From: a virus
Length of the DNA: 64,000 bases
Direction: 5' to 3' (one strand)
IMG/VR virus record: IMGVR_UViG_3300045971_000528
Span: 32,001-96,000 of that record
Position 1 is the first letter of the stretch. Each line of letters opens with the position of its first letter. The translations under genes and the position numbers were made by a program. This document shows positions 32,182-42,349 of the stretch, piece after piece. The notes below the pieces were generated by a model, which was not told where the DNA came from, ran no database searches, and worked only from the letters and a program-made list of their open reading frames with translations.

Positions 32182-32311
32182 CGTGAACAAAAGATAGAAA
32201 TCGGGGATGACATGGGAATCGAACCCTCTCCTCCGTCCGTCAGGACGGTGTGCAGCCTCTACACCACAGTCGCTATGATGGCAGCGATAACCAATTTCAA
32301 GTCGGTTCACG
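32182..32311 (-). ncRNA. Y RNA-like paralog with an embedded tRNA-like domain
   Basis: CGTGAAC-C-GA / TTTTGTTCACG stem, GGTTATC motif, internal D/T-arm module. Confidence 0.65.
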
Positions 32312-32313
32312 AC

Positions 32314-32467
32314 TTTCTAAATCAACTGGAGTGGAGACTGCTCTTGCTGCAGGCTTGGCCGTCTCGCTAAAGCGCCCTGACCTTACGGTCATTATGCGTC
32401 TTCCAACGACCGATCGCTGCTCGCGAGCTTAGAAGGGTACAGATGAAGGTGCCAGTTGATTGAGAAA
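32314..32467 (-). ncRNA. structured RNA of unknown class
   Basis: Terminal stem TTTCTCAATCAACTGG / CCAGTTGATTTAGAAA with internal hairpins; no convincing ORF. Confidence 0.45.
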
Positions 32468-32476
32468 AGCGTGTGA

Positions 32477-32539
32477 AGACAGCAAAGGGTTTTTGGAACG
32501 GAGGTCGGATGGATGATAACCGTCCCAGATCGGCTGTCT
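32477..32539 (-). ncRNA. Y RNA-like paralog (minimal)
   Basis: AGACAGC-C-GA / TTTGCTGTCT stem, GGTTATC; directly after TG-A-TAGAAT -10 (32549-32554). Confidence 0.65.
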
Positions 32540-32554
32540 ACAAGATCTATTCTA

Positions 32555-32797
32555 TCACTCTTCCGAGCGATTTGCTGCGGCAATCAGGTCAGCCGCAAAA
32601 GAAGGGTCGCGCTTGCTGATGCTGTTGGCATAGGCGATGACGTCTTGCGCAGTCTCAGCCTTGTCGAGCGGCTTCACTTCACGGAACTGCTCCGAGATGA
32701 AGTCAATGCCACCATCGATTGCATCGATGATCTTGGTGAAGGCGTTAGCCGCCCAGACGGCGCCACGCGGTGCCTTGAACATTTCTTCGTGTTCCAT
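32555..32797 (-). CDS. hypothetical protein
   Basis: 80-aa ORF with RBS. Confidence 0.6.
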   Translation of the reverse strand: MEHEEMFKAPRGAVWAANAFTKIIDAIDGGIDFISEQFREVKPLDKAETAQDVIAYANSISKRDPSFAADLIAAANRSEE

Positions 32798-32799
32798 GA

Positions 32800-33036
32800 T
32801 CAGTCCTTCTTCAGAATGAAGGCGTACATCTCGACTGCCTTTGCAGTGAGTTCGTCGATGCCATACATCTTTGGCACGAGCTTTGACATCTCGTCGACAG
32901 TGGCCTTGTTGGCGTTGATCAGGGCTTGCATCATCGTCGTTGCGAAGTCGCAGTTACGGTGAAATTGGGCATCCAGTTGTTCTTTCGCCATCTGAAGAAT
33001 TTCGAGGCGAATTTCGTACGGGGTCTTTGAAGACAT
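32800..33036 (-). CDS. conserved small phage protein
   Basis: KTPYEIRLEIL.MAK motif; AAGGA RBS. Confidence 0.7.
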   Translation of the reverse strand: MSSKTPYEIRLEILQMAKEQLDAQFHRNCDFATTMMQALINANKATVDEMSKLVPKMYGIDELTAKAVEMYAFILKKD

Positions 33037-33092
33037 TGCGTTTCCTTGCTGTGTCCGCGATTATACTGGCTCGCGGTGTGCCAGTGCAGGGT

Positions 33093-33818
33093 TCAATGAA
33101 CCCTTGTCTTGTGCTCGTCGATCAGCGTGACCAACCAGTCCGGTGGATTGGTAGTGTCATCGACCATGCCTGCTGGCAGGGTGATCTGATAGACCTCAGA
33201 GTTCTCACCCTGAACTCGTGCACGAAGCTTCATCATGGCGACCATCTGGTGGTGCTCTGATGAGAAGCGATCGATCTTCACGAGGCGCTCAATCTCGAGC
33301 ATCTTTCGGTAGTTGCCGTCCTTGGTCTCCTTGAACCCCGGACGACCGATGAAGACGAACAGTTCGTTCTCCTCATCTTGCTTCTCTTGGTCTGGAGTGC
33401 GGTTGATCTTCCAGCCGGCTAGCTTGAGTTTGACACCGAGCTTAGCATCAAGGTGCTTTGCAAGTTCGTTCAAATCGATCTTGTCCTGTAGCTTGCGGAT
33501 GGCAGGTGCATCCATCTTGGTCATTGCGACAACGATGCTAGTGAGGAGCTGATTCAGAACTTGCCCGTACTCGTAGCGTGTGGAGTGATCTACGCTTTTG
33601 TTGTTTTGCACGTCGATCAGCGGCTTGATGTACGTCAGCAGAACCTCGGGAGAATCGACCGAGTGCTTGTCATACGCCTTGTTCAGAATGCTAGCGAGCA
33701 TCTCCTCATCTTCACCCATGGTGCGAAGCACGCGAAGGGTGATGGCAAACTGGTTCCCGTGCCAGATCTTGGTCAAGGGACTGAAGTCAGAGGATTCGAG
33801 GAGTTGAGCTACACGCAT
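33093..33818 (-). CDS. leader-bearing hypothetical protein (late)
   Basis: MRVAQLLES start right after TAAATA. Confidence 0.7.
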   Translation of the reverse strand: MRVAQLLESSDFSPLTKIWHGNQFAITLRVLRTMGEDEEMLASILNKAYDKHSVDSPEVLLTYIKPLIDVQNNKSVDHSTRYEYGQVLNQLLTSIVVAMTKMDAPAIRKLQDKIDLNELAKHLDAKLGVKLKLAGWKINRTPDQEKQDEENELFVFIGRPGFKETKDGNYRKMLEIERLVKIDRFSSEHHQMVAMMKLRARVQGENSEVYQITLPAGMVDDTTNPPDWLVTLIDEHKTRVH

Positions 33819-33828
33819 GCGATATTTA

Positions 33829-33920
33829 TGGAGGAGACGGCGGGATTCGAACCCGCGGATCCTGTGAGGGACCTCAACCTTTCCAGGGTTGTGCAATCAG
33901 CCGGGCTCTGCCACGTCTCC
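33829..33920 (-). tRNA. tRNA-Ser(GGA)
   Basis: CAACC-CTGGAAA-GGTTG; long variable arm; CCA. Confidence 0.9.
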
Positions 33921-33980
33921 AGATTGCTGGGATCGCTTTCACGATCCCGTAACTCTTCGTACACTTGGTACGTGAGCTAT

Positions 33981-34214
33981 TTACTTGGCGGCGGAAGCTG
34001 CCTTTGCCGGTACACGTGGGACCACGGTACTTGGGTGAACGTTCTTCAGATGCAGTGCCTTGGCAGCACTGCGTTCACGCTGATACTTCTTGACAGCAGC
34101 CTTGTTCTTGGCTGCTTGGGAAGCTGCAGTAGTTGGTGCTGAAGCTGCAGGTGCTGCCGCTTGAGCGACGAGTGAAGTGGCCAAAAGGGAGGCCAGCAAA
34201 AATGACTTGATCAT
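33981..34214 (-). CDS. small secreted Ala-rich protein
   Basis: Signal peptide; AAS repeats. Confidence 0.6.
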   Translation of the reverse strand: MIKSFLLASLLATSLVAQAAAPAASAPTTAASQAAKNKAAVKKYQRERSAAKALHLKNVHPSTVVPRVPAKAASAAK

Positions 34215-34489
34215 GGAAGATTCCTATTGTTTGGTTGGCAGAGGTGTCTCGCCGCCACCGGCGCGAGTATTTCTACGTTCAACGGCAACCTGCACATCGG
34301 TCTTGCGGCGATTTCCGACCGCGGCGGTGCGTGGAAATCCGTTGAAGGTTCGGTAAGATGTAAAGCTGACACCACAGAGAAGCGCGAGAATCGTCAAATC
34401 TGCTGGTTTCATCTGTTATCTCCATCCATATGCGTATACCTGCCGGTGATATGGTATTTAGCAGGTTCTGCGCATGAAGCACCGTTTGT

Positions 34490-40821: not shown

Positions 40822-40875
40822 GGGGCATGCTGAGCAAAATCCCCGAGGTCCTGCTTCCGCGGCCTCATATTGTTT

Positions 40876-40961
40876 TGGAGCGGGTGATGAGAATCGAACT
40901 CACATGCGACTTGCGTCTGCCGGCTTGGAAGGCCGGTGCCCTGCCAATGGACCACACCCGC
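40876..40961 (-). tRNA. tRNA-Gly(TCC) with long variable arm
   Basis: CCGGC-CTTCCAA-GCCGG; GAC-GCAA-GTC variable arm; U73; CCA. Confidence 0.8.
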
Positions 40962-40970
40962 GTTAGTGTT

Positions 40971-41044
40971 TGGAGCGGAAGACCGGAATCGAACCGGCGA
41001 CTAAACGATGGCAACGTCTCGAGATACCACTTCACCACATCCGC
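40971..41044 (-). tRNA. tRNA-Gly(GCC)
   Basis: AGACG-TTGCCAT-CGTTT; CCA. Confidence 0.85.
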
Positions 41045-41300
41045 ATACGGGGGAATTCCACACCCCTCTCGATGTCAAGGCTTGCTGTCAGTACGGTTTC
41101 CCGTTCTTACCATGACCAGATCCACGAGTGAGACCATGTTCTTCTTGACGTCACGGCTTTCTGTCAAGGTCGCTTCCTTCATCCCTCTGCATTTTGAGGG
41201 CCGTCCGTACGACTTGCGGTCGTAGAAGCTAACGTGGGGTGAGGGAAGGAGTGCGTGCCTTCATTACTCCACGACCTCCCCTGGTCGTGGCCTCCGAATT

Positions 41301-41408
41301 TGGAGCGGGATAAGAGACTCGAACTCTCGACCTGAACCTTGTTCTAGACACGTCATTTCTTCGATGCCTAGAGGCAAGGTTCCGCTCTACCAACTGAGCT
41401 AATCCCGC
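41301..41408 (-). tRNA. tRNA-Gly(GCC) with a 32-nt anticodon-loop insertion
   Basis: Canonical Gly body; GAACC-TTGCC-[32 nt]-AA-GGTTC. Confidence 0.8.
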
Positions 41409-41725
41409 ATGGCGCTGACTAGGCTGTCACAGCGCTGTGATGCATTCACCGGCTGGGCATGGGTAACCCATTCTCCTGCACCTTCCAGCTGAGGACAGCA
41501 GCTGAAAACTGTTCGTGCGTGGTGGCACTTTCGAACGTACCGGCCACATTGCACTAGGGACCGACTGAACTTCAGTCGGGGATCCACCACCTTGTTCAGA
41601 AGGGAACAAGGAACCTTGATCATTGAACTCAACGACTGCACATCCTGAGAAGGAATTTAACGACTTTGTCAGCAGTCTCGCGTTATAAAGTGGGGTGTCT
41701 CGGTTACTAACCCACACGTTCAAAA

Positions 41726-41959
41726 GGGTTCAACAGGTAGGAATCGAACCTACATCTCCCAGCTCCACGCCAGGGCTCTGACCAATATGAGCTACCGTCG
41801 AAAGGGGTTGTCTTAGCCAGGATTTCGAAACCTGGACCTCCCGGGTACACCGGGCGTGCTCCCATTACACTACAGACAAAGGGGTTTGCTTCACGTAGAG
41901 TTCGAACTACGTCCTTCCGGTAGAAATCCGGGTGTGCTTGACCTTACACCATCAGCAAA
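41726..41959 (-). ncRNA. three tandem atypical tRNA-like RNAs ending ACCC(C)
   Basis: Each has D and T arms and an acceptor stem but a non-standard anticodon loop. Confidence 0.6.
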
Positions 41960-41962
41960 ACT

Positions 41963-42039
41963 TGGTCGGAGTACAAGGATTCGAACCTTGGACCCCCTGG
42001 TCCCAAACCAGGTGCGCTACCAGACTGCGCTACACTCCG
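41963..42039 (-). tRNA. tRNA-Pro(TGG)
   Basis: CCTGG-TTTGGGA-CCAGG; CCA. Confidence 0.92.
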
Positions 42040-42050
42040 ATGAAACTATT

Positions 42051-42162
42051 GCAAGCAAAAAGCGATGAAGGAGTTGCTCCCCGACTGGAGCTTGGAATCC
42101 CTTTCGAGACTCCATGGAGTCGAACCATGCATCTGTAAGATAACCTTCAACAAGCGGCTTGC
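42051..42162 (-). ncRNA. YrlA-like Y RNA paralog
   Basis: GCAAGC-C-G/TTGCTTGC stem, GGTTATCT, T arm CATGG-TTCGACT-CCATG, GAAA-closed acceptor-like stem, D-like arm; TAAATAG just upstream. Confidence 0.72.
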
Positions 42163-42174
42163 GAATTCTATTTA

Positions 42175-42280
42175 TCATAGAGCCCTTTGTCTGGGCGGCA
42201 GGATTCGAACCTGCGATCTATCGGGTCCAGACCGAGGATGTTGGCCAGGCTACACTACGCCCAGACAAAGGACTCTATGA
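42175..42280 (-). ncRNA. Pro-like tRNA core with acceptor stem extended to about 23 bp and no CCA
   Basis: TCATAGAGTCCTTTGTCTGGGCG / CGCCCAGACAAAGGGCTCTATGA. Confidence 0.6.
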
Positions 42281-42291
42281 CTTCAATTCAA

Positions 42292-42349
42292 GAGAACAAA
42301 AGGCGTTGAGGGCTGTTTCATAGCCTGATAACCCTCAACAACGGTTCTC
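42292..42349 (-). ncRNA. Y RNA-like paralog (minimal)
   Basis: GAGAAC-C-G/TTTTGTTCTC, GTTGAGGGTTATCAG...CCCTCAACGCCTTTTG. Confidence 0.65.

Follow-up and report, generated by a model that had tools for sequence, protein, structure and literature searches.

A Y-RNA-like family with a shared handle and variable inserts among the tRNA genes of a Ro60-encoding phage

Overview

Here we analyze a 64-kb stretch of viral DNA, bases 32001-96000 of the 106-kb IMG/VR record IMGVR_UViG_3300045971_000528 (the stretch is hereafter called the window, and the record the G000 contig), and in particular six small structured elements, E1 to E6, built on one two-stem handle and scattered in or next to an array of transfer RNA (tRNA) genes. 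We consider it likely that E1-E6 are members of a divergent Y-RNA-like family, at least eleven strong, that partners a Ro60 protein of the phage itself via this shared handle. The G000 contig is rated 29% complete by CheckV, and is therefore taken as a fragment of a jumbo phage of ~350 kb. Ro60, which is a major autoantigen, is conserved along with the Y RNAs from bacteria to humans.

A shared handle in at least eleven copies

All six elements proposed in an earlier note on this stretch, made without database searches, are present on the minus strand with the scaffold as described there (Table 1). The terminal helix, stem A, comprises 6-17 bp, and its 5' strand leads into an unpaired C in a C-C-G step opposite UUG, where the G after the bulged C pairs with a U of UUG on the 3' strand. 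A linker of 2-3 nt connects to stem B of 7-9 bp, the last two pairs of which are G-C (GG/CC). The 5' strand of stem B is succeeded by UUAUC (UUACC in E3) and then by the variable insert, after which the 3' strand of stem B begins with CC, and a linker of 5-10 nt with CUUU(U)G at its end leads into the 3' strand of stem A. Each of the six has its own stem sequences.

A descriptor requiring both stems and three short motifs yielded exactly 11 matches on the 106-kb record, compared to a mean of 1.3 in 30 shuffles. Every match is on the minus strand, and E1-E6 are all among them. Six is thus a lower bound, as five more copies are found upstream of the window, among them Ya and Yb as well as Yd and Ye, the latter two keeping the handle without a tRNA-like part. 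The bulged-C terminal helix (C-C-G opposite UUG) is present in 6/6 elements and 11/11 copies of the genome, with the exception that Ya displays G-C instead of G.U after the bulge. Applied to 654 kb of unrelated phage tRNA-Leu regions, the descriptor returned five matches: one orthologue, one probably genuine element in a 315-kb Ro60-bearing phage, and three of minimal score that are consistent with chance. This background set consists of unrelated phage tRNA loci (>114) retrieved with a pattern of the E4 D arm; the pattern was rejected as a probe for the family, the D-arm block of E4 being equal to an ordinary tRNA-Leu D arm.

Looser searches were less telling. Relaxing the loop motif by one mismatch gained only noise (7-13 matches in shuffles), and the bare pattern CCG-gap-GGTTAYC was unspecific, with a reversed control giving similar counts. 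Scoring stem B by contiguous pairs failed to tell real from shuffled sequences, because real stems contain a bulge or mismatch.

The probably genuine background match, at L093:8562-8755 (+) in IMGVR_UViG_3300048591_000147 (315 kb, complete), has a stem A of 9 bp and a stem B of 11 bp, and is a probable Y-like element of a more distant Ro60-encoding jumbo phage. A second match in the same phage, to the covariance model R2 introduced below, is weak (9295-9471).

Covariation supports the scaffold

The earlier note had suggested a covariance model and had named a lack of covariation among its grounds for refutation. Covariation was observed, strongly among orthologues from six phage contigs as well as among paralogues. 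The E3-type set holds seven sequences from these contigs (the window, G007, L190, L187 and G001 with one each, and L188 with two), and the pairs counted in its alignment are those of stem A, stem B, the T arm and the D-like arm. Paired cells amount to 91%, versus 33-52% with partners slid by 1-3 columns, and 12/23 pairs are altered on both sides. The covariation score is 0.50 as compared to 0.05-0.11 for slid partners, a value reached by 0/500 shuffles.

R2 was built from the E3-type orthologue alignment only and run on the 64-kb window, on both strands with filters off. Following E3 itself, the best matches were E5 (30.4 bits, E value 1.6e-5) and E4 (28.8 bits, 4.3e-5), then E1 (22.2 bits, 2.1e-3) and E6 (21.9 bits, 2.5e-3), all four aligned full-length and at the coordinates of the earlier note; E2 was marginal, and nothing else credible emerged across the window. 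Searching eleven small loci instead, R2 recovered 9/11 copies. In a paralogue alignment, in which pairing is somewhat favoured because it was fitted to R2, 93.5% of cells are paired versus 33-44% when slid, and 7/7 stem A pairs are altered on both sides. MAFFT misaligned the 3' strands of the paralogues, owing to the varying lengths of insert and linker, and R1, a covariance model of the single E6 sequence, proved too sequence-specific, returning only E2, the orthologue of E6 in G001 and noise.

The individual orthologues show the same pattern. Between E4 and its G007 counterpart, compensatory double changes are seen at three pairs of stem A and also in stem B, the T arm, the closed hairpin and a small hairpin. 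The architecture of E1 and E2 is kept in L190 with compensatory changes, which for E1 (L190:7010-7149) accompany the retention of all hairpins and for E2 (L190:7307-7374) affect stem B. Furthermore, RNAalifold predicts the same scaffold for seven Yb orthologues, with 13/22 pairs compensatory.

These data bear on the view that the elements are functionless, being either tRNA genes in decay or relics of small mobile elements flanked by terminal inverted repeats. Pieces derived from tRNA are indeed present, and stem A could be regarded as bounding inverted repeats. Stem A is however different in every copy and yet paired, with compensatory changes between orthologues, and therefore selection appears to act on RNA structure rather than on transposon ends or decaying genes. 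In addition, the positions are syntenic across diverged phages, and we regard decay as very improbable.

A Ro60 gene on the same contig

Congruent with the earlier note, no Ro60 gene is located in the window, but one is encoded on the same contig, 29 kb before the window start and 61 kb from E1. The search for a TROVE/Ro60 protein that the note had advised thereby recovered a full-length orthologue, a 570-residue open frame with a TROVE domain and a Ro60-type von Willebrand domain (vWA_Ro60), which aligns end to end with Rsr of Deinococcus radiodurans (E value 6.6e-102) and with human Ro60 (2.6e-96). Ro60 has already been noted in jumbo phages in the literature, and 368 GenBank phage records match it, all with <40% identity to the G000 protein. 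The companion search for RtcB was negative in the G000 contig and in relatives of 97% and 71% completeness.

Ya and Yb (G000 contig 3090-3565) are positioned immediately 5' of Ro60 on the same strand. Among related viral contigs, with Ro60 identities of 61-90%, 11/12 carry one or two scaffold elements directly upstream of Ro60 and on its strand; the stem A sequences of these elements are mutually unrelated but always complementary. All three near-complete scaffold carriers, G001 (97%), G009 (98%) and G010 (100%), encode Ro60. Thus, the same-contig Ro60, the adjoining copies and this co-occurrence sustain the proposal of an expanded, modular Y-RNA-like repertoire. G006, at first sight a scaffold carrier lacking Ro60, was dismissed as a chance pattern match in AT-rich, tRNA-free sequence.

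Ya is a 297-nt Y-like RNA (L009; G000 contig 3090-3386, minus strand) that contains three T-arm-like hairpins in tandem. The longest Ro60 frame shares its first 17 codons with the 3' end of Ya, hence the real Ro60 start is probably further downstream. Neighbouring genes on the minus strand (G000 contig 132-719, 4971-5657, 5543-6220 and 8088-8516) encode a PEP-CTERM/F5_F8 type C protein, an HNH endonuclease, a NUDIX hydrolase and a protein with a BLUF blue-light sensor domain.

Placement among tRNA genes

Nine of the eleven copies are at distances of 15-73 kb from Ro60, either within a tRNA array or at its end. In the window, E3 starts 5 nt after the encoded CCA of tRNA-Thr and ends 6 nt before tRNA-Leu(UAG), E4 is 8 nt before tRNA-Leu(GAG), E5 separates two tRNA-Pro genes, 26 nt from one and 11 nt from the other, and E6 is 5 nt after tRNA-Leu(GAG) and 27 nt before tRNA-Pro, while E2 and E1 come after the distal end of the array. 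Upstream of the window, Yd is 4 nt from its neighbour on either side, and the gaps around Ye measure 6 and 9 nt. Spacers to flanking tRNAs are hence as short as 4-11 nt, with some longer. Y-like elements between tRNAs are also found in G001, where the E6 orthologue (G001:247261-247321) is placed between tRNA-Tyr and tRNA-Leu, and in G007, G009 (L188), L187 and L190; L190 is collinear with the window, and positions are syntenic across diverged phages. Anchors from flanking proteins retrieved only distant relatives or none.

As the elements occupy tRNA slots of long same-strand arrays, they are probably co-transcribed with the tRNAs and released by tRNA-processing cuts. The same placement would suit structured spacers or processing signals of the arrays, guiding RNase E, III or P or insulating folding, and with no link to Ro60. 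Such a role is compatible with the short spacers, with the tRNA arms in several elements that RNase P or other tRNA enzymes could recognize, and with a candidate RNase P RNA inside the array. Against it, most inter-tRNA junctions of the same arrays lack such an element, unrelated phage tRNA arrays have no handle, and in about a dozen phages the handle is also found in two RNAs outside any tRNA array, directly upstream of Ro60. Moreover, the conserved bulged-C helix and UUAYC suggest a specific protein site. We therefore judge a pure spacer function to be unlikely.

Variable inserts on a constant handle

Two elements, E2 and E6, are bare handles, as had been proposed. At 58-63 nt (E6 and E2) they represent ideal substrates for defining Ro60 recognition. 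The T-arm module assigned to E3 is equally substantiated: its T arm is backed by covariation, and so is an additional D-like arm, the two being the parts that form the tRNA elbow, with no acceptor present.

The claim of a permuted tRNA in two elements stood fully for E4 only. ARAGORN at default settings was applied to E4 opened at every possible cut point. Only cuts 74-85, which fall in the loop of the closed hairpin, led to a tRNA call, and 0/20 shuffles did. This call treats the Y handle as an intron of 68 nt within the anticodon loop. With the G007 orthologue the outcome was alike, tRNA-Leu being called only for cuts 70-78. For E5 the evidence is weak: default settings gave no permuted call, and one appeared only when the threshold was lenient and an artificial loop was used. 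In native form E1, E3, E4 and E5 give no tRNA with ARAGORN, and the tRNA model (RF00005) does not match E2-E6.

The forward tRNA-like domain ascribed to E1 held in part. Its insert consists of four hairpins in forward tRNA order, namely a hairpin, a D-like arm (32250-32264), an anticodon-like arm with a tetraloop (32233-32248) and a T arm (32213-32227); the match to RF00005 reaches 19 bits, below the 29-bit threshold. A terminator-like match inside E5 and a promoter-like match inside E2 were discarded as by-products of the scaffold sequence.

A separate tRNA-like gene in the G000 contig, L014 (18239-18363, minus strand; 37 bits with the tRNA model), retains acceptor, D and T arms and an encoded CCA, but in place of the anticodon arm it has a stretch of 56 nt that includes CCG and GGUUAUC. 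The gene resembles a chimera of tRNA and Y handle with a topology opposite to that of E4.

The convincing permuted tRNA-Leu body of E4 and the tRNA arms of E1, E3 and E5 could also be explained by tRNA mimicry independent of Ro60, where the elements serve as decoys for host anticodon nucleases or other tRNA-targeting defences and the stem is only a stabilizing clamp. The heavy investment of the phage in tRNA supply and repair (~56 tRNAs, an Rnl2-type ligase and a CCA-adding enzyme) is in line with such a need. It is however the handle rather than the cargo that is conserved, E2, E6, Yd and Ye keep it without any tRNA-like part, and in E4 it is inserted exactly at the anticodon loop, the usual nuclease target. 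Decoys acting without Ro60 hence appear rather improbable.

Points against a Ro60 partnership

Several observations weigh against E1-E6 being partners of the phage Ro60. They are encoded on the same strand as Ro60 but 61-73 kb away, outside the criterion (within ~4 kb of Ro60 and on the same strand) published in a study that placed YrlA near Ro60 in 254 bacteria and 22 phages (Chen et al. 2014, PMC4201824); only Ya and Yb are that close. The cultured Ro60-bearing jumbo phage Phosso of Sinorhizobium has no such RNA near its Ro60, and the handle would therefore be specific to the present clade. The search with Rfam models that the earlier note had suggested was negative, as neither Y_RNA (RF00019) nor YrlA (RF02553) matches at E values up to 10 in 12 loci (1.8-kb search) or in an 11.7-kb search; E1-E6 are thus not members of those sequence families, and the curated Y RNA models miss the whole clade. 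Stem A and the motifs are built into the descriptor, so their presence in its matches is partly circular, and the paralogue alignment was fitted to R2. With R2, E2 reaches only 12 bits in the whole window (E value 0.9, as against 0.024 when the small loci are searched), and two of the upstream copies, Ya and Yd, escape the model in the small-locus search. Finally, no orthologue of E5 was found.

The only YrlA match in the window, at 37443-37537 with 18 bits (the gathering threshold is 69 bits), was set aside, as it overlaps the 5' half of tRNA-Ile(UAU), including the D arm, and upstream sequence.

On balance, we maintain that the elements probably are partners of Ro60. The three alternatives, spacers, decoys and decay, are less likely because the handle and not the cargo is conserved, because bare handles exist, and because the handle adjoins Ro60 outside the arrays.

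Proposed mechanism

The conserved handle would be the docking site for the phage's own Ro60 ring protein. Its distal end carries nothing (E2, E6) or one of several tRNA-derived modules (E1, E3, E4, E5). To release an element from a common precursor, RNase P could cut where the following tRNA begins, and an endonuclease and trimming could act beyond the CCA encoded by the preceding tRNA. If the Ro60-Y RNA particles of bacteria and the phage phiLo are a guide, each RNA may then gate or tether Ro60, and the tRNA-like heads may steer the particle, as adaptors or decoys, towards partners that handle tRNAs or towards tRNAs that are misfolded or damaged. Catalytic activity would have to be supplied by a host exonuclease such as PNPase, of which no gene was detected in the G000 phage or its three near-complete relatives.

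A bolder possibility, which we put forward tentatively and hold to be doubtful, is that the phage assembles programmable Ro60 particles, in which one ring is served by a dozen co-transcribed guide or adaptor RNAs, with each tRNA-derived head recruiting a different enzyme, class of damaged tRNA or host tRNA-targeting defence nuclease. If so, the output of ~56 tRNA genes would be stoichiometrically coupled to its own quality control and protection. Regardless of the mechanism, this one genome offers a natural series with a single handle and either no cargo or several tRNA-derived cargos, the orthologues of which permit structure-function tests, and it ties Ro60 to phage tRNA arrays, which are being actively studied for their part in the conflict with host defences that cleave tRNAs.

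Genomic setting

The phage encodes ~56 tRNAs in total, most of them in two minus-strand arrays, one in the window and one upstream of it, and the window minus strand also holds one tRNA-Arg (Table 1). A promoter-like site just upstream of the first tRNA of the window array, found by consensus match only, is a candidate start of the polycistronic transcript. Inside the array, the element resembling RNase P RNA has a syntenic orthologue at L190:8556-8917 (minus strand; 36.5 bits, E value 6e-9, where the gathering score is 100), and may be a divergent phage-encoded RNase P RNA, and as such the processing ribozyme for the precursor of tRNAs and Y-like RNAs. The CCA-adding enzyme and the Rnl2-type RNA ligase are encoded by G000 as well as by 3/3 near-complete relatives. 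Together, the ~56 tRNAs, the transfer-messenger RNA (tmRNA), the RNase P-like RNA, the ligase and the CCA-adding enzyme form a toolkit for supply and maintenance of tRNA.

Further observations concern individual tRNA loci. The relatives G001 and G007 each have two tRNAs with a CUA anticodon and one tmRNA. Window positions 41304-41408 (minus strand) score 54.7 bits over 105 nt with the Rfam tRNA model and are not called by ARAGORN, and may represent a tRNA that contains an intron or some other insertion. Directly 3' of tRNA-Gly(UCC), a block of 29 nt at window positions 40842-40870 is 100% identical to G001:246142-246170, whereas the tRNAs of the two phages are otherwise only 75-92% identical.

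Table 1. Y-like elements and associated features of the window and of the remaining G000 contig; each coordinate refers to the numbering named in the third column.
Feature	Position	Numbering	Strand	Details
E1, Y-like RNA	32182..32311	window	-	130 nt; stem A 32305-32311/32182-32188; stem B 32291-32298/32197-32204; UUAUC 32286-32290
E2, minimal Y-like RNA	32477..32539	window	-	63 nt, handle only; stem A 32533-32539/32477-32483; stem B 32520-32527/32494-32501
E3, Y-like RNA	36567..36703	window	-	137 nt; stem A 17 bp; UUACC; T arm 36627-36643; D-like arm 36604-36625
E4, Y-like RNA	40150..40307	window	-	158 nt; circularly permuted class II tRNA-Leu-like body
E4, variable-arm-like hairpin	40258-40271	window		
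E4, T arm	40239-40255	window		
E4, closed acceptor hairpin	40216-40238	window		
E4, D arm	40197-40213	window		Leu-type
E4, extra hairpin	40176-40189	window		
E5, Y-like RNA	42051..42162	window	-	112 nt; T arm 42113-42129; closed hairpin 42094-42113; D-like hairpin 42076-42091
E6, minimal Y-like RNA	42292..42349	window	-	58 nt, handle only
Upstream copy Ya	3090-3386	G000 contig	-	descriptor match
Upstream copy Yb	3427-3565	G000 contig	-	descriptor match
Upstream copy	18620-18733	G000 contig	-	descriptor match
Upstream copy	22029-22105	G000 contig	-	descriptor match
Upstream copy	23467-23549	G000 contig	-	descriptor match
Ro60/Rsr orthologue	1429-3141	G000 contig	-	570-residue open frame; TROVE and vWA_Ro60 domains
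tRNA array	33829..43284	window	-	28 ARAGORN tRNA genes, most with encoded CCA; E3-E6 embedded
Second tRNA array	17.4-23.7 kb	G000 contig	-	26 tRNAs; outside the window
tRNA with CUA anticodon	53127-53201	window	-	would serve as amber suppressor
Permuted (two-piece type) tmRNA	53533-53866	window	-	
Promoter-like site	43565..43593	window	-	10/12 matches to consensus
RNase P RNA (type A)-like element	34490..34855	window	-	full-length; sub-threshold, 32.6 bits, E value 2.8e-7; inside array
CCA-adding enzyme	15448-15807	window	-	PolyA_pol domain
Rnl2-family RNA ligase	29315-29785	G000 contig	-	

Comparison with known Y RNAs

In the literature searched, there is no Y RNA family of this size that is spread through tRNA arrays and has such a handle and range of cargo. 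The closest counterparts in bacteria and mycobacteriophages are YrlA and YrlB, likewise Ro60-associated noncoding RNAs with a terminal stem, an internal loop, a second stem and a 3' strand of CUUG type, and with two copies directly upstream of Ro60 on the same strand, as for Ya and Yb. The permuted module of YrlA (T arm, closed acceptor hairpin, D arm) has the order seen in E4 and E5. Regarding the YrlA motif GNCGAAN0-1G, all phage copies read N-C-C-G-N, of which the GCCGAU of E2 and E4 fits GNCGA, E5 has GCCGC, and the rest ACCGA, ACCGC or ACCGU. Unlike YrlA, the phage handle has a clear bulged-C helix and the UUAYC motif, is present in at least 11 copies versus one or two, carries varied cargo including none at all and a module in forward tRNA order, and has no linkage to RtcB.

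A functional precedent is provided by the Thermus phage phiLo, where two Y-like RNAs upstream of the phage Ro60 bind it and assemble with host PNPase (PMC12135203). The G000 group shares with phiLo a phage Ro60 with two Y-like RNA genes immediately upstream, and neither encodes PNPase. The Ro60 proteins are however only distantly related (E value 1.1e-5), and the phiLo RNAs Yrl1 and Yrl2 were recognized through a CGAA motif and have not been reported from tRNA arrays. Binding was demonstrated experimentally for phiLo.

Multiple copies of short RNAs with a common stem-bulge handle are known from nematodes, the stem-bulge RNAs being homologues of Y RNAs; these are eukaryotic, and are not known to be tied to tRNA arrays or to carry tRNA-like modules.

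Judged by its motifs, the phage handle looks more like the animal one than like YrlA. Vertebrate Y RNAs such as human Y4 similarly pair their 5' and 3' ends in a helix with a single bulged C, in C-C-G opposite UUG, and have an upper stem ending in GGG followed by UUAUC; the bulged helix is the known Ro60 site (PMC12135203). Indeed, a fragment derived from human Y4 reads stem, C-C-G, three linker bases, a stem ending in GGG, and UUAUC-AG (PMC5331234), so that the motif GUUAUC, attributed in the earlier note to human Y1 and Y4, is backed by the Y4-derived fragment, and the 5' half of E6 repeats this order of parts together with the loop-proximal motif. If the bulged-C/UUAUC code is truly held in common with animal Y RNAs, it would be far older, or have been transferred more often, than the YrlA consensus suggested. 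The phage RNAs differ in being encoded not as oligo-U transcripts of RNA polymerase III but within putative polycistrons of a bacterial virus, and in the tRNA-derived cargo that the handle bears.

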